NCBI GenBank assembly: GCA_014799595.1
Contig: JAAVHR010000022.1
Span: 1 to 60,890, forward strand
Direction: 5' to 3'
DNA length: 60,890 nucleotides
Source: Clostridiales bacterium
Lineage (GTDB): Bacteria > Bacillota > Clostridia > Lachnospirales > Lachnospiraceae
Position 1 is the stretch's first letter. Each line of letters opens with the position of its first letter. The translations under genes and the position numbers were made by a program. Shown one piece after another: positions 1 through 58,760 of this stretch. A model generated the notes under the pieces. The model did no database searches, was not told the origin of the DNA, and was given only the letters and a program-made list of their open reading frames with translations.

Positions 1-206
1 CCAACTGTATTCGTATTTCGGGCTGTCGCCCTACATACTCATACAGTTTAGCCAGCCAAATGTCTATATTTCTTTGCAAGCAAGCTTGCACGAAATATAG
101 CCGTTTGTCAGGACTTTCAAGGTAAATTTTACAATGTTTAAGCCCCTTCGCCGAAGGCGAATATTCATGGGCTTAAACGTAACTGTTCATGGTTCTGAAC
201 AGTTAC
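1..206 (+). mobile_element. Type-1 GTAAC-box mosaic element, 5' part cut off by the window edge (modules B-partial, C, D)
   Basis: Near-identical to 9629-9834, 12167-12372 and 52029-52234. Ends with the hairpin GTAACTGTTCATGGTTCTGAACAGTTAC. Confidence 0.85.
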
Positions 207-2922: not shown

Positions 2923-3067
2923 GTTACTGTTCACAGGTAGTACTTTGCACTTGCTGCAAAGTACGTAAGAATAAGTAGTGGTAGAAAAGAATCCAGCCTT
3001 TCGCCGAAGGCGAATTCCTAATAGGCTGGATTCCGTTACTGTTTGCACCGTAGGTGTGAACAGTAAA
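2923..3067 (+). mobile_element. Family-2 GTAAC-box element (AGGTAG hairpin, GAATCCAGCC...GGCTGGATTC hairpin, terminal hairpin)
   Basis: Starts GTTACTGTTCAC and ends GTGAACAGTAA(A). A perfect 8-bp direct repeat AGAAATAC lies at 2915-2922 and 3068-3075. The element sits 25 nt upstream of the response-regulator start codon. Confidence 0.85.
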
Positions 3068-3779: not shown

Positions 3780-5348
3780 ATGAGACTGAAGCATAATTTT
3801 CATTCTATGCGTTTCCGGCTAACCTGTATGCTTGCTGTTTTAATTTTGGCTACTTTCTTTCTATGTTGGTTTGCAAATCAGATGTTTCTTCCGATGTATT
3901 ATCAGTATAGCAAAACAAATACGCTAAAACAAACTTATATTAAAGTGTATGAAGAGTTAAATAAACTGAATAATGGGGAAGATGAAGATACTGGCCAAAT
4001 GGAATTATCTTTAGAAAAATGGAGTGAAGATAATAATTTAAGTATATATGTTATGAATTGGAGCCGTATTATACAAAATGGACAATGGAGCTATTTGGGA
4101 GAGTTTGTTTATCCCCAAAAAGAGGTATTAAATGAACTGGAAAGAAAACAGATATTATCCTTAATGGGGAAAAATATCGGAATATTAAAAGGTGAATCCG
4201 GATCCCAGGATAGATATTCTTTATATTCCTGTGATAATTATAATATTGTCCGGATTAATGACGACCGATTGGATTCTGAGTATTTGGAATTGGTGGGAGA
4301 GATGCAGGTAGGAGATACAACACATACTATATTTATGAGAAGCAATTATGAGAGTATTCAGGAAAGCGTACAATTATCCAGCCAATTTTTAATTTATGCT
4401 GGAATGGTTGCCACATTTCTTGGAGTTGTAGTTATGTTTGCGATTATCGGCTCTTTTACAAAACCAATTAAAAAACTTTCACATATAGCAGGTGAAATGG
4501 CAGAATTAAAATTTGAGACAAAATATACAAAACAACGCAAAGATGAAATTGGAGATTTAGGGCATTGTATTAATTTGTTGTCAGAAAAACTGGAGCAGAC
4601 AATATCAGAACTAAAAGCGGCGAATAATGAGTTACAGTCAGATATTGAGAATAAGATTCAAATTGATGAAATGCGGAAGGAATTTTTGTCTAATGTATCT
4701 CATGAATTAAAGACACCTATTGCATTAATTCAAGGATATGCAGAAGGATTACAGGAAAATATCAATGAGGATGAAGAAAGCCGGGAATTTTATTGCGATG
4801 TTATTATTGATGAAGCAAATAAAATGAACAAAATGGTTAAAAAACTCTTGAATTTAAATCAAATTGAATTTGGGAATAACTTAGTAGAATTTGAGCGTTT
4901 TGATATTGTCACAGTAATCCAGTCTGTAATAAATTCTACCCATATTTTGTTTGAACAGAAGGAAGTTACATTGATTTTTGAATCTTATGAGCCAATTTAT
5001 GTATGGGCGGATGAATATTCTATAGAAGAAGTGGTAACAAATTATATCAGTAATGCATTGAATCATGTGGATGGGGAAAAAATTGTAGAAGTTAAGATTA
5101 CCAAACAAGCTGGAAAAGTTCGCATATCTGTATATAATACAGGACAATCTATTCCAGATGAAGATTTGGAAAAAGTATGGATTAAATTTTACAAAGTTGA
5201 CAAAGCAAGAACCAGAGAATATGGTGGCAGCGGAATTGGGCTATCTATTGTAAAGGCAATTATGAATTCCCTACATCAGGAGTGTGGTGTGAGAAATTGT
5301 TCTAATGGAGTAGAATTCTGGTTTGAGTTAGATATGCAGGATGACTAA
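3780..5348 (+). CDS. Sensor histidine kinase (2 TM, HAMP, HisKA, HATPase_c)
   Basis: Has an H-box (FLSNVSHELKTPIA), an N box (NALNH) and a G box (GGSGIGLSIVK). ATG 3780 follows the RBS AGGAGAGG. Confidence 0.9.
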   Translation: MRLKHNFHSMRFRLTCMLAVLILATFFLCWFANQMFLPMYYQYSKTNTLKQTYIKVYEELNKLNNGEDEDTGQMELSLEKWSEDNNLSIYVMNWSRIIQNGQWSYLGEFVYPQKEVLNELERKQILSLMGKNIGILKGESGSQDRYSLYSCDNYNIVRINDDRLDSEYLELVGEMQVGDTTHTIFMRSNYESIQESVQLSSQFLIYAGMVATFLGVVVMFAIIGSFTKPIKKLSHIAGEMAELKFETKYTKQRKDEIGDLGHCINLLSEKLEQTISELKAANNELQSDIENKIQIDEMRKEFLSNVSHELKTPIALIQGYAEGLQENINEDEESREFYCDVIIDEANKMNKMVKKLLNLNQIEFGNNLVEFERFDIVTVIQSVINSTHILFEQKEVTLIFESYEPIYVWADEYSIEEVVTNYISNALNHVDGEKIVEVKITKQAGKVRISVYNTGQSIPDEDLEKVWIKFYKVDKARTREYGGSGIGLSIVKAIMNSLHQECGVRNCSNGVEFWFELDMQDD

Positions 5349-6173: not shown

Positions 6174-6308
6174 GTAACTATTTAGGTAGAAACACGCATT
6201 TACTGCGTGTTTTGTAAGAAAAAGTAAATTTTGTAATGTTTAAGCCCCTTCGCCGAAGGCGAATTATTATGGGCTTAAACGTAACTGTTCATGGTTCTGA
6301 ACAGTTAC
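6174..6308 (+). mobile_element. Type-1 GTAAC-box element, short form (modules A, C, D; module B absent)
   Basis: Starts GTAACTATTTAGGTAG and ends TGAACAGTTAC. Flanked by ATTTCTGG (6166-6173) and GTTTCTGG (6309-6316). Confidence 0.85.
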
Positions 6309-6736: not shown

Positions 6737-6872
6737 GTAACAGTTCAGCCAAGGGCTGACCTGTTACGGAATTGGGCAAGCTTCGCATTGTAAATTGCCC
6801 AATTCCAATCCTGTTTTAGTCTTTTTTACGGTCTTGCACAGCGGAGTGTGCAAGACCTACCTGAACTGTTAC
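6737..6872 (-). mobile_element. Family-3 GTAAC-box element (three internal hairpins)
   Basis: Starts GTAACAGTTCAG and ends CTGAACTGTTAC. A perfect 8-bp direct repeat GAATAGTA lies at 6729-6736 and 6873-6880. Confidence 0.9.
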
Positions 6873-8002: not shown

Positions 8003-8046
8003 ATGCTCTGAATATTTGAACATTCATATATTTAGAGCATTTTTCT
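8003..8046 (+). terminator. Rho-independent terminator of the rplU operon
   Basis: ATGCTCTGAATAT (8003-8015) pairs with ATATTTAGAGCAT (8028-8040), followed by TTTT. Confidence 0.8.
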
Positions 8047-8048
8047 TG

Positions 8049-8075
8049 CTTTATAGGAAAATTCGTCCTATAAAG
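8049..8075. repeat. Conserved hairpin CTTTATAGGA-N7-TCCTATAAAG, copy 1 of 2
   Basis: About 45 nt, including this hairpin, recur after the rpmB terminator (55865-55910). Confidence 0.8.
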
Positions 8076-8252
8076 TAAAAACGCTCCGCTTAGGATGTGC
8101 ACAGATGCGTAAGGACTATGGGTGCAAAAAAACATGCAACACACATCTGGCACGCAAAGGGTGCAATCCCCTCATGAATGAGGGGTTAGGGGAGTTGATG
8201 TGGGCTTGCCCACTTTGTTCTTAGAGATAAATTTGAATAGTGAGGTGAAAAC

Positions 8253-9542
8253 ATGTTTGCAGATAGTGCTAAGATATATATACGTTCTGGTAAAGGCGGA
8301 GATGGTCATGTGAGTTTTCGCAGGGAATTGTATGTGGCAGCTGGAGGACCAGATGGTGGTGATGGCGGCAGGGGCGGCGATTTGATTTTTGAAATAGATG
8401 AGGGTTTGAATACCTTGAATGATTTCCGTCATGTCCGTAAGTATTTTGCTACAGATGGAGAGCCAGGTGGAAAGAGAAATTGTCATGGTGCAGATGGTGA
8501 GAATAAAGTCGTGAAAGTCCCACCAGGAACTGTTATCAAAGATGCAGAGACAGGAAAAGTTATTGCTGATATGAACTATGAGAACCGGAGAGAAGTGATT
8601 TTAAAAGGTGGTCGTGGTGGAAAAGGAAATCAACACTATGCTACACCTACTATGCAGGTTCCAAAATATGCACAGCCTGGTAAGCCGGGAATGGAAATGA
8701 CAGTTATTTTGGAACTGAAAGTAATTGCAGATGTGGGACTTGTGGGATTCCCTAATGTAGGAAAGTCTACATTTTTATCACGGGTGACTAATGCAAAACC
8801 AAAGATTGCCAATTATCATTTTACCACATTGAATCCGAATCTTGGTGTTGTTGATTTGGAAGGAACAGATGGATTTGTAATTGCGGATATTCCTGGATTG
8901 ATTGAGGGAGCAGCCGAGGGGATTGGTTTGGGTCATGAATTTTTAAGGCACATTGAACGGACAAAATTGATGATTCACATGGTTGATGCTGCTTCTACAG
9001 AAGGAAGAGATCCTTTGGTGGATATACAGGTGATTAATGGAGAATTGGAGGCTTACAATCCGGAACTTGCAAAAAGACCACAGGTAATCGCAGCAAACAA
9101 AACAGACATTTTTTATGGTGATGAAGAAGAAACAGTTATATCTTTGTTGAGAGATGAATTTGAACCAAAAGGAATACCAGTTTTTCCGATTTCTGCTGTT
9201 AGTGGAAAAGGTGTCAAAGAATTGTTATATTATGTCAAAGAACAGTTAAACGAAATTGGTGATGAACCAGTTGTATTTGAAAAAGAATATTTTGTAGAAG
9301 ACTTAATTGTAGCAGATGAACCGTTTACAGTAGAAAAAGACGAAGAAGAGAATGTGTTTGTGGTAGAAGGTCCGAGAATTGAAAAGATGTTGGGTTATAC
9401 AAACTTGGATTCTGAAAAAGGATTTGAATTTTTCCAAAGATTTTTAAAAGAGAGTGGCATTTTAGAACAACTTGAAGCATTAGGAATACAAGATGGTGAT
9501 ACCGTAAGAATGTATGGTTTACAATTTGACTATTATAAGTAA
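8253..9542 (+). CDS. obg: GTPase Obg/CgtA
   Basis: Has the Obg fold (GGDGGRGG), G motifs (GFPNVGKST, DIPGLIEGA, NKTD) and a C-terminal OCT domain. The stop codon TAA (9540-9542) lies inside the repeat element. Confidence 0.95.
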   Translation: MFADSAKIYIRSGKGGDGHVSFRRELYVAAGGPDGGDGGRGGDLIFEIDEGLNTLNDFRHVRKYFATDGEPGGKRNCHGADGENKVVKVPPGTVIKDAETGKVIADMNYENRREVILKGGRGGKGNQHYATPTMQVPKYAQPGKPGMEMTVILELKVIADVGLVGFPNVGKSTFLSRVTNAKPKIANYHFTTLNPNLGVVDLEGTDGFVIADIPGLIEGAAEGIGLGHEFLRHIERTKLMIHMVDAASTEGRDPLVDIQVINGELEAYNPELAKRPQVIAANKTDIFYGDEEETVISLLRDEFEPKGIPVFPISAVSGKGVKELLYYVKEQLNEIGDEPVVFEKEYFVEDLIVADEPFTVEKDEEENVFVVEGPRIEKMLGYTNLDSEKGFEFFQRFLKESGILEQLEALGIQDGDTVRMYGLQFDYYK

Positions 9543-9834
9543 CTATTCAGGTAGAAACACGCATTTACTGCGTGTTTCGTAAGAAAAAATGAAAGTTGAT
9601 TGCTATGTGCTACGCACTCTCGCAATCACCAACTGTATTCGTATTTCGGGCTGTCGCCCTATATACTCATACAGTTTAGCCAGCCAAATATCTATATTTC
9701 TTTGCAAGCAAACTTGCACGAAATATAGCCGTTTGTCAGGACTTTCATAGTAAATTTTGTAATGTTTAAGCCCCTTCGCCGGAGGCGAATTAGTATGGGC
9801 TTAAACGTAACTGTTCATGTTTCTGGACAGTTAC
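9539..9834 (+). mobile_element. Type-1 GTAAC-box mosaic element, full length (modules A-B-C-D)
   Basis: Starts GTAACTATTCAGGTAG and ends CTGGACAGTTAC. A perfect 8-bp direct repeat TATTATAA lies at 9531-9538 and 9835-9842. Confidence 0.9.
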
Positions 9835-9852
9835 TATTATAAATAAAAATAC

Positions 9853-11686: not shown

Positions 11687-11752
11687 GCTGCTGTTCACTG
11701 GTAGGACTTTGCACTTGTTGCAAAGTTTGTAAGAATAGGTGTGGACAGTAAC
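11687..11752 (+). mobile_element. Family-2 GTAAC-box element, internally deleted, with a degenerate left end
   Basis: Reads GCTGCTGTTCACTGGTAGGACTTTGCA...GGTGTGGACAGTAAC. Flanked by ACAAGTAG and ACAAGGAA (6 of 8 match). Confidence 0.65.
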
Positions 11753-12077: not shown

Positions 12078-12372
12078 GTAACTATTCAGGTAGAAACACG
12101 CATTTACTGCGTGTTTCGTATGAAAAATGAAAGTTGATTGCTACGTGCTACGCACTCCCGCAATCACTAACTGTATTCGTATTTCGAGCTGTCGCCCTAC
12201 ATACTCATACAGTTTAGCCAGCCAAATGTCTATATTTCTTTGCAAGCAAGCTTGCACAAAATATAGCCGTTTGTCAGGACTTTCATAGTAAATTTTACAA
12301 TGTTAAAGCCCCTTTGCCGAAGGCGAATATTCATGGGCTTAAACGTAACTGTTCATGGTTCTGAACAGTTAC
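12078..12372 (+). mobile_element. Type-1 GTAAC-box mosaic element, full length
   Basis: Near-identical to 9539-9834. Flanked by CTAAGTAC (12070-12077) and CTAAATAC (12373-12380). Confidence 0.9.
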
Positions 12373-12813: not shown

Positions 12814-12894
12814 GTAACAGTTCAGCCAGAAAAAATATTTTTAGCCAATTTGTATATTCTGGCACTTTATGAATGGACTTGGCTGAACTCTTAC
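12814..12894 (+). mobile_element. Family-4 GTAAC-box element
   Basis: Starts GTAACAGTTCAGCC and ends GGCTGAACTCTTAC. A perfect 8-bp direct repeat GAATTTTT lies at 12806-12813 and 12895-12902. Confidence 0.9.
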
Positions 12895-13451: not shown

Positions 13452-14141
13452 ATGCATTATCATGTATTAACATTATTTCCGGATATGATAGAACATGCAA
13501 TGGGACAGAGTATTACAGGCAGAGCCTTGCAGAACAGCTTGTTGAGTATGGATGTTATCAATATCCGGGATTTTTCAGAGAATAAATATAATAAAGTGGA
13601 CGATTATCCTTATGGTGGTGGTGCTGGGATGGTTATGCAGCCAGGACCAGTGTTTTGTGCGTATGAAAAGGTTAAAGAAAATATAGAAAAACAAGGAAGA
13701 GTGAGCAAACCAAAGGTTGTATATATGACACCACAAGGAAAAGTTTTTCACCAAAAAATTGCAAAAGAGCTTGCAAAAGAAGAAGATTTGGTGATTCTTT
13801 GTGGGCATTATGAGGGAATTGATGAAAGAGTTCTGGAAGAAATTGTAGATGAGAATATTTCTATAGGAGATTATATATTAACTGGCGGAGAATTGCCGGC
13901 GTTGGTGGTAATGGATTCCATAGCAAGATTACTTCCAGGAGTGTTACACAATGAAGAATCTGCCCAGTTAGAGAGCTTTTCTAATAATCTTTTGGAATAT
14001 CCTCAGTATACACGGCCGGTAGAATGGCATGGAAAAAGAGTTCCGGAGGTATTATTGTCTGGCCATCATGCTAATATAGAAAAATGGAGACAACAACAGT
14101 CGTTGGAACGAACAAAAGAAAGGCGGCCGGATTTGTTGTAA
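13452..14141 (+). CDS. trmD: tRNA (guanine37-N1)-methyltransferase TrmD
   Basis: Contains HVLTLFPDM, YPYGGGAGMVM and GHYEGIDERV. The stop TAA (14139-14141) lies inside the repeat element. Confidence 0.95.
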   Translation: MHYHVLTLFPDMIEHAMGQSITGRALQNSLLSMDVINIRDFSENKYNKVDDYPYGGGAGMVMQPGPVFCAYEKVKENIEKQGRVSKPKVVYMTPQGKVFHQKIAKELAKEEDLVILCGHYEGIDERVLEEIVDENISIGDYILTGGELPALVVMDSIARLLPGVLHNEESAQLESFSNNLLEYPQYTRPVEWHGKRVPEVLLSGHHANIEKWRQQQSLERTKERRPDLL

Positions 14142-14371
14142 CAGTTCAGCCAGAAAAAATATTTTTAGCCAATTTGTATATTCTGGCACTTTATGAATGA
14201 GCCCAGCTGAACTGTTGTTACAGTTCACACCTATGGTGCAAACTGTAACGGAATCCAGCCTATTAATAATTCGCTTTCAGCGAAAGGCTGGATTCTTGGC
14301 TGTTCTATCTTCTTGGCACATAGCTTGACAGCAAGTGTCAAGCTTGTGAGTGAACAGTAACGAACTGTTAC
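14138..14371 (+). mobile_element. Family-4 GTAAC-box element with a family-2-variant element inserted in its right terminus
   Basis: The left part matches 12814-12885. The right TIR CTGAACTGTT|AC is split by the insertion at 14217-14361. The outer flanks are GATTTGTT and GACTTGTC (6 of 8 match). Confidence 0.8.
14217..14361 (-). mobile_element. Family-2-variant GTAAC-box element, nested
   Basis: Starts GTTACAGTTCAC and ends GTGAACAGTAAC. A perfect 8-bp direct repeat GAACTGTT lies at 14209-14216 and 14362-14369. That target is itself the TIR of the host element. Confidence 0.9.
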
Positions 14372-17407: not shown

Positions 17408-18166
17408 ATGGCAGAAAAGATAGCAGAAATAAAGAGTGCATTTGAAGCAGTTTCCATAGAAGAAAGACCTGGCTTGATTAAAAAGTATGAAAAAGATGCC
17501 AGGCAAGGTGTGCAAAAACTTATTGAAAAATATAAAAAAGAGCAAATTGCATTAAAGGCAGAATATGCAAGAACAGAGGCTATGAAAGAATTTGAATATA
17601 AGTACAAAGAGTACAAGTATATTTGTGGAATTGATGAAGTGGGAAGAGGTCCTTTAGCCGGACCGGTTGTAGCTGGTGCTGTTATTTTGCCGAAGGATGA
17701 GACAATACTTTATCTTAATGATTCGAAACAGCTTAGCGAAAAGAAAAGAGAAGAACTGTATGACGTAATTATGGATAAAGCAGTGGCAGTAGGTCTGGGA
17801 GTGGTATCCCCTGGAGACATTGATAAAATGAATATTTTGCAAGCGACTTATGAGGCAATGCGTATTGCCATAGGAAAGCTGGATGTGAAGCCGGATTTGT
17901 TGTTAAATGATGCAGTGACTATTCCTGGTGTAGATATAAAACAAGTGGGAATTATAAAGGGAGATGCCAGAAGTGTTTCTATAGCTGCAGCAAGTATTGT
18001 TGCGAAGGTCACTAGGGATCGTATGATGGTAGAATATGATAAAATTTATCCAGAATATAAATTCGCAAATAATAAAGGTTATGGTGCAAAGGTGCATATA
18101 GAGGCGTTAAAGGAAGTTGGACCTTCGCCAATTCATAGAAATACTTTTTTAAAAAATATACTATGA
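17408..18166 (+). CDS. rnhB: Ribonuclease HII
   Basis: Contains ICGIDEVGRGPLAGPVV and DSKQLS. The stop codon lies inside a repeat remnant. Confidence 0.95.
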   Translation: MAEKIAEIKSAFEAVSIEERPGLIKKYEKDARQGVQKLIEKYKKEQIALKAEYARTEAMKEFEYKYKEYKYICGIDEVGRGPLAGPVVAGAVILPKDETILYLNDSKQLSEKKREELYDVIMDKAVAVGLGVVSPGDIDKMNILQATYEAMRIAIGKLDVKPDLLLNDAVTIPGVDIKQVGIIKGDARSVSIAAASIVAKVTRDRMMVEYDKIYPEYKFANNKGYGAKVHIEALKEVGPSPIHRNTFLKNIL

Positions 18167-18253
18167 AAGTCCTGACAAACGGCTATATTTTGTGCAAGCT
18201 TGCTTGCAAAGAAATATAGCCATCAACTTTCACTTTTCTTACGAAACAGTAAT
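18161..18253 (-). repeat. Inverted, heavily deleted remnant of a type-1 element (parts of modules B and A)
   Basis: CTATGAAAGTCCTGACAAACGGCTATATTTTGTGCAAGCTTGCTTGCAAAGAAATATAGCC is the reverse complement of the 3' part of module B. No termini are retained. Confidence 0.75.
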
Positions 18254-21133: not shown

Positions 21134-21161
21134 GTAACTGTTCATGGTTCTGAACAGTTAC
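21134..21161. repeat. Minimal GTAAC-box hairpin GTAACTGTTCATGGTTCTGAACAGTTAC
   Basis: 11-bp stem with a 6-nt loop, identical to module D of the type-1 elements. Confidence 0.85.
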
Positions 21162-21323: not shown

Positions 21324-21382
21324 ATCTTAAAAACAGAGGGACATGAAAAAATATCATGCGTTCAAAAGAAGGAGAGAAGAAC

Positions 21383-23467
21383 ATGTATAAGAGTTTTACA
21401 ATGGAACTGGCAGGAAGAAAATTAACTGTTGACATAGGGAGAGTAGCAAAACAGGCAAATGGTGCAGCGTTTTTGCATTATGGTGATACTACTGTGTTAT
21501 CTACAGCTACCGCTTCTGAAAAACCTAGAGAAGGGATTGATTTCTTTCCACTTAGTGTAGAATATGAGGAAAAGATGTATGCGGTAGGAAAAATTCCGGG
21601 AGGTTACAATAAGAGAGAAGGTAAGGCATCTGAGAATGCAGTACTTACCTCACGTGTAATCGACAGACCAATGAGACCGTTATTTCCAAAGGATTATCGT
21701 AATGATGTGACTTTGAATAATCTGGTAATGTCTGTAGATCCAGAATGTAGTCCAGAGTTAACAGCTATGCTTGGATCTGCAATTGCAACAGCGATTTCAG
21801 ATATTCCATTTGATGGTCCTTGTGCAACCACACAAGTGGGAATGATAGAAGGAGAATTTATTATCAATCCAAACCAGACACAGATGAAGGAATCTGACCT
21901 TAAACTTACAGTAGCTTCCACGAAGGAAAAGGTTATTATGATTGAAGCTGGTGCCAATGAAATTCCAGAAGACAGAATGATTGAGGCGATTTATAAGGCT
22001 CATGAAGTAAATCAGGAAGTGATAGCTTTTATTGAACAGATGGTGAAGGAATGTGGTAAACCAAAACATACTTATACAAGTTGTGCCATACCAGAAGAAT
22101 TGTTTGCTGCTATCAAAGAAATTGTGCCACCAGATGAAATGGAAAAGGCGGTATTTACGGATGAAAAACAGGTAAGAGAAGAAAATATCCGTCAGATAAA
22201 AGAAAAACTGGAAGAGGCTTTTGTAGAGAATGAAGAGTGGTTGGAAGTTCTTTCAGAGGCAGTATATCAGTATCAGAAGAAAACTGTTCGTAAGATGATT
22301 TTGGTGGATAAAAAGAGACCAGATGGAAGAGAAATGACACAGATTCGTCCTCTTGCGGCGGAGGTAGATTTGATTCCTCGTGTGCATGGTTCTGCTATGT
22401 TTACCCGTGGACAGACACAAATTTGCAATGTGACTACTTTAGCCCCATTATCAGAAGGTCAGAGACTAGATGGATTAGATGAATTGGAGACAGGTAAACG
22501 TTATATGCATCATTATAACTTCCCTTCCTATTCTGTAGGTGAGACAAAACCTTCTAGAGGACCAGGACGTCGTGAAATTGGACATGGTGCTTTGGCAGAA
22601 AGAGCATTAATTCCGGTATTGCCAAGTGAAGAGGAATTTCCTTATGCAATCCGTAGTGTATCAGAAACTTTTGAATCAAATGGTTCTACTTCTATGGCAT
22701 CCACCTGTGCTTCCTGTATGTCTCTTATGGCAGCCGGTGTACCAATCCGTAAAATGGTAGCAGGTATTTCTTGCGGTCTGGTAACAGGAGAGACAGATGA
22801 TGAATATGTATTGTTGACAGATATTCAAGGATTAGAAGATTTCTTTGGAGATATGGACTTCAAAGTGACTGGTACCAAAGATGGTATTACTGCAATCCAG
22901 ATGGATATTAAAATTCATGGTTTGACCAGACCAATTGTAGAAGGAGCAATTAAACGTTGTAGAGAAGCAAGAATGTTTATTATGGAATCAACCATGATAC
23001 CAGCTATTGCAGAACCTCGTAAGGAAGTAGGAGAATATGCACCTAAGATTGTGCAGATTCAGATTGATCCGGCTAAGATTGGTGATGTAGTAGGACAGCG
23101 TGGTAAGACTATCAACGCGATTATTGAACAGACAGGTGTAAAGATTGATATTACAGATGAAGGAGCAGTATCTATTTGTGGTGCGGACACAGAACTGATG
23201 GCAAAAGCTGTGAAAATGATTGAAATTATTACTTCGGATTTTGAAGAAGGTCAGATTTTAGAGGGCGAGGTAGTAAGTATCCGGGAATTTGGTGCTTTTG
23301 TAGAATTTGCTCCAGGTAAAGAAGGCTTGGTTCATATTTCTAAGATTTCCAAAGAAAGAATTAATCATGTGGAGGATGTATTGACACTAGGCGACCATGT
23401 CAAAGTTGTTTGTCTTGGAAAAGATAAGATGGGACGAGTTAGCTTTAGTATAAAGGATGTAGAGTAA
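21383..23467 (+). CDS. pnp: Polyribonucleotide nucleotidyltransferase (PNPase)
   Basis: Two RNase PH domains followed by KH and S1 domains. ATG 21383 follows AAGGAGAG. Confidence 0.95.
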   Translation: MYKSFTMELAGRKLTVDIGRVAKQANGAAFLHYGDTTVLSTATASEKPREGIDFFPLSVEYEEKMYAVGKIPGGYNKREGKASENAVLTSRVIDRPMRPLFPKDYRNDVTLNNLVMSVDPECSPELTAMLGSAIATAISDIPFDGPCATTQVGMIEGEFIINPNQTQMKESDLKLTVASTKEKVIMIEAGANEIPEDRMIEAIYKAHEVNQEVIAFIEQMVKECGKPKHTYTSCAIPEELFAAIKEIVPPDEMEKAVFTDEKQVREENIRQIKEKLEEAFVENEEWLEVLSEAVYQYQKKTVRKMILVDKKRPDGREMTQIRPLAAEVDLIPRVHGSAMFTRGQTQICNVTTLAPLSEGQRLDGLDELETGKRYMHHYNFPSYSVGETKPSRGPGRREIGHGALAERALIPVLPSEEEFPYAIRSVSETFESNGSTSMASTCASCMSLMAAGVPIRKMVAGISCGLVTGETDDEYVLLTDIQGLEDFFGDMDFKVTGTKDGITAIQMDIKIHGLTRPIVEGAIKRCREARMFIMESTMIPAIAEPRKEVGEYAPKIVQIQIDPAKIGDVVGQRGKTINAIIEQTGVKIDITDEGAVSICGADTELMAKAVKMIEIITSDFEEGQILEGEVVSIREFGAFVEFAPGKEGLVHISKISKERINHVEDVLTLGDHVKVVCLGKDKMGRVSFSIKDVE

Positions 23468-23503
23468 GAGGTTAAAAATTCAAAAGAAGGAGAGTTGTGC
23501 GAT

Positions 23504-26500
23504 ATGAAGAGATCGATGAAGAAAAAGATGAGAAAAGCGATTGGTGTATCTATGGCGGTAGCAATGGCTATGACCAGTATGCCAGAAGGTAAACTATATA
23601 ACTGGGGGAGTTTGCGAGTACAAGCTGCAGATACCACAAAAACAATTGATGCGTCTGCAGTGGTACAACAGGTAGAATCTGCGGCGAGCAACCGTCCAGG
23701 AATTCCTGACGGAATTTTATTGAATGAACTGAAGAAACTGGTAAATACCAAATTGGGAAGAGCCGCAGACCACGAGATTACCTTCGCAGAACTTATGGCT
23801 TATGATGGAGAGATCGACTTAGCTGCAATTGGAAGCCAGATTACTTCAATTAGTGGATTAGGATATGCAAGAAAAGCAAAAAAGATTGTTTTAACAAATG
23901 TTCCAGTAAAGGCAATTGATGATTTTGAGTTTGATGGTTGTACGGGATTGCAGGAAATTGTACTTCCTGCTAATCTGGAAACCATTGGAAAAGCATCTTT
24001 TCGAAATTGTAATAGTTTGGAAACTATTGTATTGCCAGAAACAATGAAAACAATTGGAGAGTCTGCTTTTGATGCATGTACTAAACTTGCAAAGATTAAT
24101 TTGCCAAATTCTATTGAAAAAATAGATAAAGGTGCGTTTGGTGCGTGTAAAATATTGGAAGAAGTTACCATTACCAATCCTAAGATAGTATTGGGTGCAT
24201 CGGTATTTGAAAGTTGTGAGAATTTAAAGAGTGTTAATCTTCCAGAAGGAATTACAGAAATTCCTGCATCTTTTCTGGCACAGACTGGAATTACATCTAT
24301 AAAGGTACCTTCTACAGTTAAAATTATTAAACAAAGTGCCTTTAACCTTACACTGAATTTAAAAGAGATTGATTTGACAGGGTGTAATGGACTTACTACT
24401 TTGGAAAGCAGTGCTTTTGCCCAGAGTGGTATTGAAACTATAAAACTTCCAAATAGTCTGACGACTATCAAAAGTAACTGTTTTGATACTTGTGTAGGAT
24501 TAAAAGAGATTACAATTCCAGATTCTGTGCAGGGAAAAGGTGACGGAACAGGCACTGGTATAGAGACATTAGCATTTTGGAGATGTTATAATCTGAAGAA
24601 GATAAGTTTACCAGCAGGAATATCGGCTTTGCAGAAAGAATTATTTAATGACTGTTGGAATTTGCAGGAAGTAGAGATAAGAAATAGTGCAACTAGTGTG
24701 CTGGAAAGTATTGAGGCAGAGGCATTTGTGGGGTGTAACAGCCTTTCGGACACAAACTTCTTAAGAGATCTTCCTAATTTAAAACGAATTGAAGATGGAG
24801 CTTTTTCTTATCGGAAGTATAAATCGAATGACGATAACCTTAAATTTGCCAATATTACTGGAGTTTTTTGTAAATTAGATAATGATATCTTTAATGAGGA
24901 GCAGTATTCTTTGGGATTGCATTCCATTACCCTTCCGAATTCTGTTACTTATCTTGGAAAAGAAGTGTTTGCGGAACAGCCTAATGTAGAAATAGTTACT
25001 CTTGGCAATGGATTAAAGACAATTCCGGAAAATACTTTTAAGGGATTTAGTCATTTGGAGAAGCTTACCCTGCCATCAGAATTAAAGACAATTGGAAATT
25101 CTGCTTTTAACGGATGCTGCAGATTAGAAGATTTTACTTTTCCGAATACATTAGAGACGATTGGGGATTCGGCATTTTCCGATTGTGGTGCAGTAAAAAT
25201 GGCACAAAAATTAAATTATAATATTTGTTATGTTGCCAATGATGGGATATATGATGCCAGACCTGCTGGTAGTACAACGGTAAAAGAATGTTTAGTATAT
25301 CAGACGGATAATTCTGGGAATCAAGAGATAGTTGTGAAATTCTTGGAAATAGATAAATGTATAACGGAAAATGCATATAAGAAAGTAGAAAATCCTGAGA
25401 TATACACAAAAGTTACAATTGCTGCAGAAAAAAAATATGTGAAGGAAACAGATATTTTTACAAGCAAAAGTAATACCTCAAATTCTTATACAGATTATAC
25501 ATACAATATAGAGACAAAGAGAATTGTAAACAGTAGAACACTTTACACAGAAAGAAAAAATGATGTTTTAGCAGATGCAAATTGTATCTATACACCAACA
25601 GACGGATATATAGGTTTTTATGTCCGTAGTGGTGGTACTCAAATGCAGGAATATGTGAATACAGGAATTTCTAATTTGGTAATACCAAATAGTGTAAAAA
25701 CTATAGGAAAAAGTGCATTTTACAATTGTTATAATTTGAGGAATATAACTATCTCTGATCAGATAATTGAGATTCCTGAATCTGCTTTTGCAGTGGCGAA
25801 AGGTGATTTGCTGAGAAATAATAACTGGATTGATAAAGATTACGAAAGTGGTGCATATTTGTTTTACAGAACAGTAACTTTACCAAAAGAACTGGAAGTG
25901 ATAGGGAATAAAGCTTTTGAAAATAACAGTAATTTAAAAAATATAATTTCTGGTTTGCCACAAACACTTCTGACAATTGGAAATAGTTCTTTTAGATGCT
26001 GTTGTAGTCTGGAAAGTATAGTAATTCCTTCCAAGGTGAAATCCATTGGTGAATATGGATTCTGGGGATGTTCAGAATATGCTAAGTCAAAATTACCAGG
26101 GGCGGGTAAATTCGATGATTATTATATGGAGGAAGTATATGGACTGAAGGAACTTGATCTGACACAAGCATCTTCTTTGGAGTCTATTGGAGCCAGAGCT
26201 TTTGGATTGACAGCCATTCGTCAATGTACACTTCCTGAAAAAGTAACAGAAGTTTCACAAGGGTTGTTTGAATATTGCGAATTTTTAAATAAAGTGATTT
26301 GCTCTAATGATACCAATGCTATTCAAAATGATGTGTTCCGTGACTGTACAGATTTGGTTTCTATTACAATTCCTGCGAAGGCTACTGTAAGTTATTATGC
26401 ATTCCGAGGCAATGATATTGGTATGTTTAATTTCTCTATTACAGATCCGGAACCATATAGTGTCTCTATAGGAGAGAATGAAGTTCTACCAATTAATACC

Positions 26501-28591
26501 TTTTTGGATGATTATTTAAGAAGTAAACCCGAGATTAAAGAAAAAAATGGGGAAACTGGTTTCTTGGAAGGTGTAGAAGGCAAAGTGGAAAAAATTAATA
26601 GCTGGAATGTTCATAAGGTTGGCGTAAAAGGGTTAAAAGAGGGAACGACTACAGTAAGTATTGTTGGAACAAACAATTATTTGTTATATGGTACTACTGT
26701 ATTTACAAAAGCACCAGAAATTAATATTACTTTGAATATAACCAAGAAAAAATGTACAAACATTGTGGACGAACAGAATTCTGCTGTGATTAGTATGGAA
26801 AACACCCAAAAAGAAGTTTCTCTAAATCCTCAGGTGTTACCGGAAGATTGTTCTGAAGCAAATGTATGGTCAAGCAGTAACGAGAATATTGTAAGCGTAC
26901 TTCCAAAGACTTATATACAAAATGGAGTAGAAGCTGTAAGTTCTTCTGCTGTGTTGTATCCTAGAGGATTAGGAACTAGTAAAGTTACCTTAAAAACCGG
27001 ATCTGTAAAAAAGGATTATCAGGTTCATGTGGTAGTTCCTGCAACAGGAATTACTTTAGATAAACAGGAAATTTCCACTAAGGAAGGTTCAAAAGAGCGT
27101 ATTAAACTTAATGCAAATATGACTTATGATACAAGTAAGTATAGTGCATCTGATTGGGAAAATTTCAAAGATGTATTGGATTACCAAAGTGGAGATGAAA
27201 AGGTGGTAACAGTATCTGGAGAAGGTGTAGTAACTCCGGTTGGAGCAGGAACTACCCAGATTACTGTAACAGCACTTGGCAGTGGAAAGACAGCAGTATG
27301 TAATGTAAGAGTATTGCCAGATGAAACTTTAGTATTCTTTACCGATGCTGCTGGAACAGAGTGGAATACCACTAAAACTATAGAAGTGCAGGCAAAAGAT
27401 CCTATTGTATTAAATATTGGTACAGAACCAGTGAATTCTGTTGCAGAACTAACATGGGAATTCTCAGATAAAAATATGTTCACTTATGTAAAGAATACCA
27501 CAAAGTATGTAGAGACAGAGGATAAGGGGCAACAGGAAAAAGTGGTTTCTATGGAATTTACAGGTGATAAGATTGGAACAGGAACTATAACTATATATCC
27601 AAAGAATTGTAAGAATAAAGATGCGGTTTCTGCTAAGGTCACTGTTCAAATACGTGCAGATGTGAAGGAAGCAGCATTTGCAACAGTTAATGAAATGCAA
27701 GTAGGAACAGAGCAGTCGGTATTTGGCTATATCGTGACAGGAGCAGGGAAAGCAGAAAAGGTGGCAGATATTCAGAAAATAACCACAGACACTGTGTCTT
27801 TTGTTTCTTCAAATTCCAGTATTGCATCTGTAGATCCTAAGACAGGTGTAGTAAAAGCAGTTGGAGAAGGAAAAGTAACAATTTCCATGCAGATAGTGAA
27901 TTCTAAGGATAGCAATAAAAATATGGTAAAAAATCTGGAACTAAATATTGTGAGACCACAGGCAACCGATATGATAGTAACAGAGAAGAATAGCAAGAAT
28001 GTAGTTTCTGTAGGGGGAACTTTGCAGCTTGTAACAACCTTGATACCAAATGTGGCAGAAGATAACATTACCTTTGTATCAGAGAATCCGACTGTGGCAA
28101 GCGTAGATGCAAATGGTAAGATTACTGGACTTTCAGCAGGAACTGGTAAGATTACAATTAAGGCTGAAAAGAAAGGGATTACAAAAACATTTGAGTTTAC
28201 TGTAACTGGAGCGGTGGCAACAAATAAACCACAGACAAGCAATCCACCACAAGTAACCAACAAACCTAATACCACAGCAAAGCCAAATAAGATTACAGTT
28301 AGTAAGGTAACTGGGGTAAAGGCAGTCAATAAAAAAGGCAAGAAAATAAAGGTGAGCTGGAAAAAACTTGGAAGTGTAAAGGGCTATCGTATTACAGTTG
28401 CTTTGAATAAGAAATTTACTTCAGGTAAAAAGATTCTCTGGGTAAAGAAGGGAACTACGACATCGAAGATTGTAAACAAATTAAAGAAGGGTAAAACCTA
28501 TTATGTAAAAGTAGAAGCCTATAAGCTAAATGGTAAAAAGAAAGTATTTGGAAAACCAAGTGCTGTGAAAAAGGTAAAAATTAAGAAATAA
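23504..28591 (+). CDS. Giant secreted surface protein: BspA-type leucine-rich repeats, Big_2-like Ig domains, a Pro/Thr/Asn linker and a lysine-rich FN3-like C-terminal domain
   Basis: Has a signal peptide and dozens of LRR_5-type units (IxLPxSVxxIGxxAFxxCxxL). Big_2-like segments are present (e.g. VVTVSGEGVVTPVGAGTTQITV). The C-terminus is ...SWKKLGSVKGYRITVA...GKTYYVKVEAYK. There is no LPXTG motif. Confidence 0.85.
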   Translation: MKRSMKKKMRKAIGVSMAVAMAMTSMPEGKLYNWGSLRVQAADTTKTIDASAVVQQVESAASNRPGIPDGILLNELKKLVNTKLGRAADHEITFAELMAYDGEIDLAAIGSQITSISGLGYARKAKKIVLTNVPVKAIDDFEFDGCTGLQEIVLPANLETIGKASFRNCNSLETIVLPETMKTIGESAFDACTKLAKINLPNSIEKIDKGAFGACKILEEVTITNPKIVLGASVFESCENLKSVNLPEGITEIPASFLAQTGITSIKVPSTVKIIKQSAFNLTLNLKEIDLTGCNGLTTLESSAFAQSGIETIKLPNSLTTIKSNCFDTCVGLKEITIPDSVQGKGDGTGTGIETLAFWRCYNLKKISLPAGISALQKELFNDCWNLQEVEIRNSATSVLESIEAEAFVGCNSLSDTNFLRDLPNLKRIEDGAFSYRKYKSNDDNLKFANITGVFCKLDNDIFNEEQYSLGLHSITLPNSVTYLGKEVFAEQPNVEIVTLGNGLKTIPENTFKGFSHLEKLTLPSELKTIGNSAFNGCCRLEDFTFPNTLETIGDSAFSDCGAVKMAQKLNYNICYVANDGIYDARPAGSTTVKECLVYQTDNSGNQEIVVKFLEIDKCITENAYKKVENPEIYTKVTIAAEKKYVKETDIFTSKSNTSNSYTDYTYNIETKRIVNSRTLYTERKNDVLADANCIYTPTDGYIGFYVRSGGTQMQEYVNTGISNLVIPNSVKTIGKSAFYNCYNLRNITISDQIIEIPESAFAVAKGDLLRNNNWIDKDYESGAYLFYRTVTLPKELEVIGNKAFENNSNLKNIISGLPQTLLTIGNSSFRCCCSLESIVIPSKVKSIGEYGFWGCSEYAKSKLPGAGKFDDYYMEEVYGLKELDLTQASSLESIGARAFGLTAIRQCTLPEKVTEVSQGLFEYCEFLNKVICSNDTNAIQNDVFRDCTDLVSITIPAKATVSYYAFRGNDIGMFNFSITDPEPYSVSIGENEVLPINTFLDDYLRSKPEIKEKNGETGFLEGVEGKVEKINSWNVHKVGVKGLKEGTTTVSIVGTNNYLLYGTTVFTKAPEINITLNITKKKCTNIVDEQNSAVISMENTQKEVSLNPQVLPEDCSEANVWSSSNENIVSVLPKTYIQNGVEAVSSSAVLYPRGLGTSKVTLKTGSVKKDYQVHVVVPATGITLDKQEISTKEGSKERIKLNANMTYDTSKYSASDWENFKDVLDYQSGDEKVVTVSGEGVVTPVGAGTTQITVTALGSGKTAVCNVRVLPDETLVFFTDAAGTEWNTTKTIEVQAKDPIVLNIGTEPVNSVAELTWEFSDKNMFTYVKNTTKYVETEDKGQQEKVVSMEFTGDKIGTGTITIYPKNCKNKDAVSAKVTVQIRADVKEAAFATVNEMQVGTEQSVFGYIVTGAGKAEKVADIQKITTDTVSFVSSNSSIASVDPKTGVVKAVGEGKVTISMQIVNSKDSNKNMVKNLELNIVRPQATDMIVTEKNSKNVVSVGGTLQLVTTLIPNVAEDNITFVSENPTVASVDANGKITGLSAGTGKITIKAEKKGITKTFEFTVTGAVATNKPQTSNPPQVTNKPNTTAKPNKITVSKVTGVKAVNKKGKKIKVSWKKLGSVKGYRITVALNKKFTSGKKILWVKKGTTTSKIVNKLKKGKTYYVKVEAYKLNGKKKVFGKPSAVKKVKIKK

Positions 28592-34700: not shown

Positions 34701-34845
34701 GTTACTGTTTACAGTTAGGACTTTGCACTTGCTGCAAAGTCCGTAAGAATAAGTAGTGGTAGCGAAGAATCCAGCCTTTTGCCGAAGGCGAATTTTAAAT
34801 AGGCTGGATTTTGTTACTGTGAGCATCATGGATGTGAACAGTAAC
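34701..34845 (+). mobile_element. Family-2 GTAAC-box element inserted between pilD and pilMN
   Basis: About 90% identical to 2923-3067. Starts GTTACTGTTTAC and ends GTGAACAGTAAC. Flanked by TAAAAGAC (34693-34700) and AAAAAGAC (34846-34853). Confidence 0.85.
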
Positions 34846-51939: not shown

Positions 51940-52234
51940 GTAACTATTCAGGTAGAAACACGCATTTACTGCGTGTTTCGTAAGAAAAATGAAAGTTGAT
52001 TGTTACGTGCTACGCACTCCCGCAATCACTAACTGTATTCGTATTCTGGGCTACCGCCCTACATACTCATACAGTTTAGCCAGCCAAATGTCTATATTTC
52101 TTTGCAAGCAAGCTTGCACGAAATATAGCCGTTTGTCAGGACTTTCATAGTAAATTTTGATTGTTCTAAGCCCTTCACTGAAGGTGAATTTTCATGGGCT
52201 TAGAACGTAACTGTTCATGGATCTGAACAGTTAC
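51940..52234 (+). mobile_element. Type-1 GTAAC-box mosaic element, full length
   Basis: A perfect 8-bp direct repeat GGAAATAG lies at 51932-51939 and 52235-52242. Confidence 0.9.
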
Positions 52235-55840: not shown

Positions 55841-55870
55841 GATGTCATACTTTGGTGTGGCATCTTTTTT
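55841..55870 (+). terminator. Rho-independent terminator after rpmB
   Basis: GATGTCATAC pairs with GTGTGGCATC (two G:U pairs), followed by TTTTTT. Confidence 0.8.
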
Positions 55871-55871
55871 G

Positions 55872-55898
55872 CTTTATAGGAAAGTTCGTCCTATAAAG
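55872..55898. repeat. Conserved hairpin CTTTATAGGA-N7-TCCTATAAAG, copy 2 of 2
   Basis: Same sequence context as 8041-8085. Confidence 0.8.
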
Positions 55899-55960
55899 TA
55901 TAAAAGTTCCAAAAATATATGTGTAAGTTTTAGGAGAGTATATAAAGGGACAGTCCTCCT

Positions 55961-58502: not shown

Positions 58503-58638
58503 GTAACTATTCAGGTAGAAACACGCATTTACTGCGTGTTTCGTAAGAAAAAAGTGAAAGTTGATTGTTCTAAGCCCTTCGCCAAAGGCGAATTTTCATG
58601 GGCTTAGAACGTAACTGTTCATGGTTCTGAACAGTTAC
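58503..58638 (+). mobile_element. Type-1 GTAAC-box element, short form (module B almost entirely deleted)
   Basis: A perfect 8-bp direct repeat AATATTTA lies at 58495-58502 and 58639-58646. Confidence 0.9.
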
Positions 58639-58649
58639 AATATTTATAA

Positions 58650-58676
58650 GTAATGTTCATGGTTCTGGACAGTTAC
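58650..58676. mobile_element. Minimal GTAAC-box hairpin with its own flanking repeat
   Basis: GTAATGTTCATGGTTCTGGACAGTTAC is flanked by ATTTATAA and ATTTCTAA (7 of 8 match). Confidence 0.55.
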
Positions 58677-58744: not shown

Positions 58745-58760
58745 GGGTGTGAACAGTAAC
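58745..58760. repeat. Solo right end of a family-2 element (GGGTGTGAACAGTAAC)
   Basis: Matches the last 14-16 nt of 2923-3067 and 34701-34845. No partner end is nearby. Confidence 0.5.

Follow-up and report, generated by a model that had tools for sequence, protein, structure and literature searches.

A family of miniature inverted-repeat elements with IS66-type ends in Lachnospiraceae and its Clostridiales-1 RNA passenger

The stretch of DNA analysed in this work (the window) comprises the 60,890 nt of contig JAAVHR010000022.1 from a Clostridiales bacterium of the Lachnospiraceae (assembly GCA_014799595.1). Directly after the obg gene (8253-9542) it carries a 296-bp element (9539-9834, plus strand), which starts with GTAACTATTCAGG, ends with CTGGACAGTTAC and is bordered on either side by the identical octamer TATTATAA (9531-9538 and 9835-9842). 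The stop codon of obg, the TAA at 9540-9542, is located inside the terminal GTAAC of the element, and an empty site would encode the same C-terminus of the protein (YYK and stop). The element is a MITE, a miniature transposable element with inverted repeats, and belongs to a family of short units that have terminal inverted repeats (TIRs) on either side and are flanked by 8-bp target-site duplications (TSDs), and whose ends are those of insertion sequences (ISs) of the IS66 family. Loci and contigs compared with the window are designated by L-numbers (L124, L375 etc.).

Anatomy and census of the repeat units

The element downstream of obg is composed of four fold modules preceded by the left TIR GTAACTATTCAG (9539-9550, plus strand), which agrees at 12 of 12 positions with the left inverted repeats of both ISGka4 and ISGst1. 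The modules are hairpin H1 (AAACACGCA / TGCGTGTTT, 9554-9578, plus strand), placed between the conserved motifs GGTAG and CGTAAG; a four-way junction of 160 nt, within which a full-length match to the Clostridiales-1 RNA of Rfam (RF01699) spans 9590-9747 on the minus strand (117.4 bits, model positions 1-166 of 166); hairpin H2 (9764-9806, plus strand), with an outer stem TTTAAGCCC/GGGCTTAAA and an inner hairpin CTTCGCC-GGAG-GCGAA; and a 28-bp terminal palindrome (9807-9834), in which two TIRs face each other (GTAACTGTTCA-6 nt-TGGACAGTTAC) in the same form as in free-standing mini-elements. A full element carries three TIR copies, the facing pair at one end and a single copy at the other. Folded as single-stranded DNA the element reaches -65 kcal/mol, as against -27.6 +/- 3.5 for shuffled sequences (z = -10.7), which bears out the multi-hairpin structure proposed in the first-pass annotation, a reading of the sequence made without database searches.

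Forms of about 135 bp contain all modules except the four-way junction, with two hairpins between the ends, and the 296-bp form corresponds to this canonical element plus a 160-nt insert in the linker between H1 and H2. The shorter form is the base architecture family-wide and not just a deletion derivative. Two window copies had been described as internally deleted derivatives, which is correct for 58503-58638, where a deletion between two TTGATTGTT repeats of a 296-type copy left 13 nt of the insert; the copy at 6174-6308, in contrast, lacks the insert exactly and represents the canonical form.

When 36 canonical copies, drawn from 20 or more assemblies, were aligned, 94% of the cells in four helices were paired, compared to 25-39% when the partners were slid by one to three columns. 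Changes on both sides were found in 20 of the 35 pairs; seven of nine pairs of H1 and eight of nine outer pairs of H2 show compensatory changes, and the observed values were reached by none of 500 shuffles. The outer repeats were also paired by RNAalifold, with position 6 co-varying between them. Among the mismatches in the helices G-U (26) and A-C (31) are about equally frequent, so that there is no hint of one strand being a functional RNA. This pattern points to hairpins that are maintained in the DNA and not in a single strand of RNA.

In the window there are 17 TIR-bounded units and three fragments (1-206, 18153-18248 and 58750-58760), together 2,661 bp or 4.4% of the sequence; the earlier estimate of about 20 copies, 2.9 kb and 5% was slightly high but fair, and the ten copies listed at that time proved exact in coordinates, ends and flanks. 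The units measure 27-296 bp and have no coding capacity, the open reading frames (ORFs) which overlap them being flanking genes that terminate in a TIR. Both unit ends carry GTAACWRTTCAG or, in the D subfamily, GTTACTGTTCAC. Eight units have perfect TSDs, the same number as previously counted, five have TSDs with one mismatch, two with two mismatches, and two have none. The TSDs of 13 of the 17 units therefore show at most one mismatch, a level (at least seven of eight positions) which a random pair of octamers attains with a probability of about 4e-4. Two nested insertions are present, each with its own TSD.

The individual copies, on the plus strand unless otherwise indicated and with the exception of the palindromic mini-elements, are the following. 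To the 296-type belong two full 295-bp copies, at 12078-12372 (TSD CTAAGTAC/CTAAATAC; Clostridiales-1 at 12128-12285, minus strand) and at 51940-52234 (TSD GGAAATAG twice; Clostridiales-1 at 51990-52147, minus strand), a copy truncated by the window edge, of which the right-hand 206 bp remain (1-206; Clostridiales-1 at 1-122, minus strand), and the 136-bp deletion derivative at 58503-58638 (TSD AATATTTA twice). The canonical 135-bp element at 6174-6308 is of A-type without the RNA insert (TSD ATTTCTGG/GTTTCTGG). B-type elements are found at 6737-6872 (136 bp; TSD GAATAGTA twice) and, on the minus strand, at 1990-2123 (134 bp; TSD CAGCCAAG/CAGCTAAG), the latter interrupting a D-type element at 1923-2209, whose left TIR is decayed and whose TSD, AAAATGTG, is perfect. 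Further D-type elements, all of 145 bp, are those at 2923-3067 (TSD AGAAATAC twice), at 34701-34845 (TSD TAAAAGAC/AAAAAGAC) and, on the minus strand, at 14217-14361 (TSD GAACTGTT twice); a 66-bp derivative composed of TIR, H1 and TIR is present at 11687-11752 (flanks ACAAGTAG/ACAAGGAA). The D-type copy at 14217-14361 is inserted inside the right TIR of a C-type element (14138-14371), and a second C-type element of 81 bp is located at 12814-12894 (TSD GAATTTTT twice). A 27-bp mini-element at 58650-58676 has the TSD ATTTATAA/ATTTCTAA. The solo 28-bp mini-element at 21134-21161 has no TSD and is an old copy, with a decayed palindrome at the orthologous place in L126. The fragment at 18153-18248 (minus strand) is a decayed copy without TIRs, in which the first Clostridiales-1 hairpin is fused to the H1 side (28.6 bits, sub-threshold).

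As with obg, the stop codon of the ORF 13452-14141 (TAA at 14139-14141) is held by the GTAAC of a MITE, the C-type element at 14138-14371. Copies lying directly after genes, and supplying the stop codon in these two cases, can alter gene ends and the 3' regions of transcripts. A terminator or promoter function of the focal element was rejected after a site scan of that element, which found no terminator-like site inside.

Distribution, target-site duplications and recent mobility

A scan for the terminal palindrome in one genome per species identified at least 113 loci in at least 56 assemblies. Among the matches listed the carriers are mostly labelled Lachnospiraceae or assigned to members of that family (Fusicatenibacter, Acetatifactor, Blautia, Eisenbergiella, Hungatella, Clostridium symbiosum, Faecalicatena, Parablautia and Oribacterium). 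Over 0.8 Mb of these listed loci, TIR pairs 25-4000 bp apart were flanked by identical octamers in 48 cases and by octamers with one mismatch in 24, while neither class occurred among control flanks shifted by 10 bp. That copies in general mostly lack duplications, which the first-pass annotation had named as a finding that would speak against mobility, is thus false. Together with the window there are 56 perfect TSDs, 21 of them at mini-elements. The G+C content of the TSDs is 32% against a background of 47%, and no fixed target consensus is apparent.

Two size groups make up the listed loci. The 31 mini-elements of 28-32 bp consist of repeat, loop (4-8 nt) and repeat only, and all have TSDs that are perfect or have one mismatch; about 35 elements of 131-156 bp have the layout of the 135-bp form of the window.

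Comparison of close relatives yielded five pairs of filled and empty sites. In L173 a 138-bp element lies between TACCATTT and TGCCATTT, and L137 (95% identity over 5.7 kb) has a single TACCATTT and no element. For the 6737-6872 site, compared in a set of contigs with identical ribosomal protein L21, the B element at the doubled GAATAGTA is present in the window and in L377, L375 has a single GAATAGTA, and L379-L381 retain only a 15-bp remnant. Conversely, a 135-bp element at a doubled ATCTAAAT is found in L375 and is absent from the window. A 31-bp mini-element between two AATAGTTC in L384 is matched by one AATAGTTC without element in L382 and L383, which indicates that mini-elements insert as units. 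Finally, the spacer between rpmA and obg contains a 135-bp element in L379 and none in the window or L375. The site downstream of obg, which had been suggested as a place to look for an empty site, is occupied in all six contigs recovered. Exact look-up of Obg returned near-identical contigs only, with the same sites occupied, and that of S16 returned a species too diverged for alignment of the spacer.

Recent insertions have taken place into intergenic DNA and into other copies. Single copies can be old, but as a family the repeats do not form an ancient, fixed structure. A reading of the repeats as ancient structural or regulatory sequences (terminators, attenuators) which have lost their mobility would suit the solo palindrome at 21134-21161, without duplication and with its decayed orthologue in another species, and the uniformly occupied obg site. 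It conflicts with the five polymorphisms in close relatives, which also show that relatives do not share all occupied sites, with the 90-97% identity between copies, with nested insertions whose duplications are intact and with the lack of a terminator-like site in the focal element. For the family as a whole this explanation is refuted, and we regard it as extremely improbable, while it still holds for individual old copies.

The minimal 28-32-bp palindrome, the intergenic position of the copies, often directly after stop codons, and the insertion of an IS110-family gene in one terminal repeat (L124) recall the repetitive extragenic palindromic (REP) sequences and bacterial interspersed mosaic elements (BIMEs), which are likewise palindromic, intergenic and modular; in Proteobacteria relatives of IS110 insert at REPs. 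Spread by an enzyme of the REP-associated tyrosine transposase type (RAYT, IS200-like Y1) is nevertheless highly improbable, as 56 sites show perfect duplications of 8 bp, the octamer is present only once at empty sites and the ends belong to an IS family of DDE type, whereas target duplications of REPs have to our knowledge not been reported. The earlier rejection of REP/BIME elements on the ground that they make no TSD was thus justified, and so was the description of the units as non-autonomous and MITE-like with staggered-cut (DDE-type) insertion, since the TSDs are far above chance, insertions are nested and filled and empty sites exist.

The L124 copy (4149-4969, from a Hungatella metagenome-assembled genome) is a MITE with a perfect TSD TTCTCACC, whose left repeat is split between GTAACAG and CAGATAGG by a truncated gene of the IS110 family (194 aa; 48 bits for DEDD_Tnp_IS110). 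IS110-type insertion thus seems to target the MITE ends, as it does REPs in Proteobacteria.

Among previously described repeats, Correia elements of Neisseria, RUP, BOX and SPRITE of Streptococcus and MIC231 of Bacillus cereus are also short, non-coding, TIR-bounded, multi-copy, intergenic and structured, and some have passengers. The ends of the present family occur in none of them; the duplication made by Correia elements is TA, RUP has been connected with an IS630-type element, and MIC231, with duplications of 10-12 bp, has been connected with IS231.

Lachnospiraceae are among the commonest bacteria of the human gut. A MITE family which takes up about 4% of a housekeeping region and occurs in 56 or more assemblies contributes notably to structural variation between strains, and its copies are a likely cause of assembly breaks. 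The canonical 133-bp and 296-bp elements gave no blastn match in the PLSDB plasmids. A search of viral contigs with the 16-mer TIR pattern gave 117 matches, all of them chance occurrences within coding DNA, the pattern being too short for so large a collection.

Relationship to insertion sequences of the IS66 family

The repeat ends of the window start with GTAA and have the GTAACnnTCAG repeat of the ISBst12-like group. For ISDge4, a member of this group of the IS66 family, the reported TIRs are GTGACTACTCAGCA and GTAACTGCTCAGCA, and the direct repeat measures 8 bp (PMC12898284). In ISGka4 of Geobacillus (pHTA426) the ends are GTAACTATTCAGCCC / GTATCTATTCAGCCC with the TSD AACTCGTC, and its transposase matches the Pfam domains DDE_Tnp_IS66 (218 bits) and zf-IS66. 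ISGst1 has the ends GTAACTATTCAGCC / GTAACTATTCACCC and a perfect 8-bp TSD AAAAGAAC, and an IS66-family element of Bacillus thuringiensis has GTAACTACTCAGCTT at both ends and a perfect 8-bp TSD AATTTATC.

In order to find such ISs in metagenomes, GTAACWRTTCAG was searched for at 237-297 nt from the reverse complement of the DNN.AER motif, and at least 120 loci were detected. A homologue of the transposase profile is encoded by 109 of the 120 listed loci, whose hosts range from 27 to 72% G+C. Out of the 121 IS-end matches listed, 93 have GTAACTATTCAG as right-end 12-mer, 24 have GTAACTGTTCAG and three have GTAACAGTTCAG. Complete copies measure 1.55-1.76 kb or, where an additional ORF lies upstream, 2.0-2.6 kb, and many have perfect 8-bp TSDs, including one IS at four different sites. 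Identity between MITE ends and IS66-family ISs amounts to 12 of 12 positions and extends up to 16 of 16: the right-end 16-mer of the A family of the window, GGTTCTGAACAGTTAC, recurs unchanged as the right end of ISs from L385, L386 and L367. Some ISs, e.g. that of L306, also have a short hairpin directly after the repeat.

The ISs of the group (ISGka4, ISGst1, ISDge4, ISBst12) share with the MITEs the terminal 12 bp GTAAC-T/A-A/G/C-T/C-TCAG and the 8-bp duplication. They differ in being 1.55-2.6 kb long and in encoding a DDE_Tnp_IS66 transposase of 450-515 aa, sometimes with a small upstream ORF, whereas the MITEs are non-coding, measure 27-296 bp and have interiors unrelated to the examined IS ends beyond about 16 bp. 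The two size classes were seen among L255, L256, L313, L325, L358-L370 and L387; in the larger class of 2.0-2.6 kb the upstream ORF has 116-132 aa or about 290-300 aa; the ORFs of 116-132 aa have no Pfam match on record.

Pairing a MITE with an IS by identity of the ends and length of the duplication is standard practice. On the basis of the same ends and the same duplication length the family is assigned to IS66-type (ISBst12-like) transposases, and judging from these sequence features it is most likely moved by an IS66-family DDE transposase of the single-ORF ISBst12-like group. Both the IS66-family ends and the RF01699 core had been missed in the first-pass annotation, which did not recognise the family among described repeats and would have counted a match to a catalogued repeat or IS against mobility; the match is partly there, yet it strengthens the mobile interpretation.

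Several points weigh against this assignment. No IS66-type transposase was detected by tblastn in the window and in the 0.8 Mb of MITE-bearing Lachnospiraceae loci, a search with an IS66-type query to which the confirmation of the earlier statement that the window encodes no transposase is confined. In the MITE-bearing loci there are no TSD-flanked TIR pairs longer than 300 bp apart from one with an IS110 fragment. The end-matching ISs are from outside the Lachnospiraceae (Bacillaceae, Deinococcus, Bulleidia) or from unidentified hosts in metagenomes, and their contigs are without any MITE. The commonest repeat variant of Lachnospiraceae, GTAACAGTTCAG, accounts for only 3 of the 121 listed IS ends. 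Part of the covariation among copies may come from descent from the founders of subfamilies. Support from within the Lachnospiraceae is indirect, namely the 27 IS66 transposases reported for Clostridium clostridioforme LM41 (PMC11318856).

The partner enzyme is probably encoded elsewhere in the carrier genomes, by an ORF for which flanking ends GTAACWGTTCAG would be expected. No Lachnospiraceae IS66-type element could be assigned by protein search, cluster names, encoding contigs, tblastn against plasmids and phages, or viral loci. Many end-matching ISs have the right duplications and none adjoins a MITE; one cluster of them is named Bulleidia sp., and others lie beside diderm-type or Firmicutes-type neighbour genes. 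Orphan TIRs in MITE-bearing loci have no transposase alongside, and an all-against-all blast of these loci revealed no IS-like long repeats. A search for autonomous copies over 0.86 Mb (TIR pairs 500-5000 bp apart with a perfect TSD) had L124 4149-4969 as sole match, which was rejected as being the MITE with the truncated IS110-family gene; pairs at the same distances with one or two TSD mismatches are consistent with chance. The stricter pattern FDNNQAERD had no match in viral contigs.

It may be asked whether the likeness to IS66 is coincidental and the elements are moved by another 8-bp-duplicating DDE family (ISL3, IS256, IS1595, IS6) or by an undescribed enzyme. The fact that no IS66-type gene is found beside, or on the same sequence as, any Lachnospiraceae copy examined would fit, as would the rarity of the AG repeat variant among the IS66-type elements sampled. 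We consider this quite unlikely in view of the identity of MITE and IS ends over 12 to 16 positions, the duplication length common to both and the association of the 12-mer with IS66-type transposases across hosts of 27-72% G+C. In addition, the known ends of the other 8-bp-duplicating families start with GG or GA and not with GTAAC.

Whatever the family of the enzyme, the unit required by it is the 12-bp TIR, GTAAC-W-R-TTCAG, and insertion takes place in AT-rich targets with duplication of 8 bp. A pair of repeats that face across a loop of 4-8 nt (28-32 bp) suffices for insertion as a unit. The 296-bp form is the element of about 135 bp with the 160-nt Clostridiales-1 passenger added in the linker between the hairpins, and the hairpin stems vary by compensatory changes with pairing retained. 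An IS66-type enzyme may, to judge from the mini-elements, need just two 12-bp repeats, which is useful to know for a poorly understood transposase family.

Already known are this kind of MITE, IS66 as likely parent family and the RF01699 motif. The literature search found no description of an IS66-derived MITE. As far as the literature was searched, a MITE family with ends of IS66 type, the abundance of such a family in the Lachnospiraceae, the minimal form of 28-32 bp that is mobile by itself, the three-repeat layout and the role of Clostridiales-1 as largely a MITE passenger appear to be new.

The Clostridiales-1 RNA module and other features of the window

Clostridiales-1 was described as a large structure of four stems, very common in human gut DNA, and as a candidate small RNA gene of unknown function, with no remark on repeats or mobility (PMC2864571, Weinberg et al. 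2010). The 158-nt core of the 296-bp form spans the whole RF01699 model, and the three full copies of the window score 117.4, 124.1 and 122.2 bits and the edge copy at 1-206 72.2 bits, against a gathering score of 48 bits. No other Rfam family matched any module, even at E <= 0.1. At nine of the ten independent loci examined Clostridiales-1 lies within a TIR-bounded MITE, and at one (L376/L378) it stands alone.

Near-identical strains differ in whether orthologous MITE copies contain the passenger. At the focal site all six contigs with the same downstream protein (L390-L395) hold a MITE with the unusual right repeat TGTTTCTGGACAGTTAC, L394 and L395 reaching only its right end. In L391 and L392 it is the 296-bp form, and in L390 and L393 it is the 135-bp form, from which the Clostridiales-1 module is absent and which shows two extra substitutions within 30 nt of the junction. 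The converse is seen at the 6174-6308 site, with the 135-bp form in the window and in L375 the 296-bp form with a 160-nt insert (120.6 bits). Passenger turnover may take place by gene conversion between paralogous copies of the 135-bp and 296-bp forms, with which the cluster of substitutions beside the junction fits.

In L376 and L378 the spacer between rpmA and obg holds a stand-alone copy without MITE ends (2547-2704 in both; 107-115 bits), in sense orientation and followed by the hairpin GCCTCGCTTGCGAGGC and a T-run; the same two contigs have a further, more diverged Clostridiales-1 copy upstream of rplU. The rpmA-obg spacer of the window has no stand-alone Clostridiales-1. The stand-alone copy of L376/L378 may resemble the original Clostridiales-1 gene.

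The strong Rfam matches and this sense copy with hairpin and T-run would be in line with repeats that are structured small RNA genes, multiplied for their usefulness, whose inverted ends are incidental. We hold this to be very unlikely: only four full or truncated RNA copies stand against 17 units in the window and most members elsewhere have no RNA, the module is gained and lost inside an otherwise unchanged MITE, all four window copies are antisense to the flanking genes, and a scan of the RNA strand of the focal copy (the only copy scanned) found no sigma-70-like promoter. If Clostridiales-1 is instead a passenger of the MITEs, its abundance in the gut may largely reflect hitch-hiking on a transposon, with a bearing on annotation and on the choice of a copy for experiments.

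A further proposal is that the 160-nt module is itself a second, nested mobile unit, which homes into the MITE or acts for the transposon, e.g. as an RNA controlling or guiding the IS66-type enzyme. It is based on the inverted ends of 7-8 bp which the module has of its own (TGAAAGT...ACTTTCA), on the free-standing copies of L376 and L378 and on exact gain and loss at one point of the linker; we think it unlikely, and if it were true, a composite mobile element would account for most "Clostridiales-1 sRNA genes" of gut metagenomes, which would form part of it.

Beside the solo mini-element, at 21354-21528 on the minus strand, there is a sub-threshold match to the Listeria RNA rliD (23.4 versus 50 bits, E = 0.02), which is probably due to chance. 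A separate short repeat, which contains a hairpin CTTTATAGGA...TCCTATAAAG and has no GTAAC ends, is present at 8037-8087 and 55860-55910 (88% identical), and its copy number varies in the rpmA-obg spacer of relatives (L377, L379, L381). A tmRNA gene is located at 851-1194 (Rfam RF00023, 178 bits), downstream of a 155-aa ORF (274-741). An ORF of 1698 aa (23495-28591) has internal repeats about 900-1000 nt apart, and the paralogous ATPase genes which follow it have a 46-nt stretch in common (29941 and 31152).

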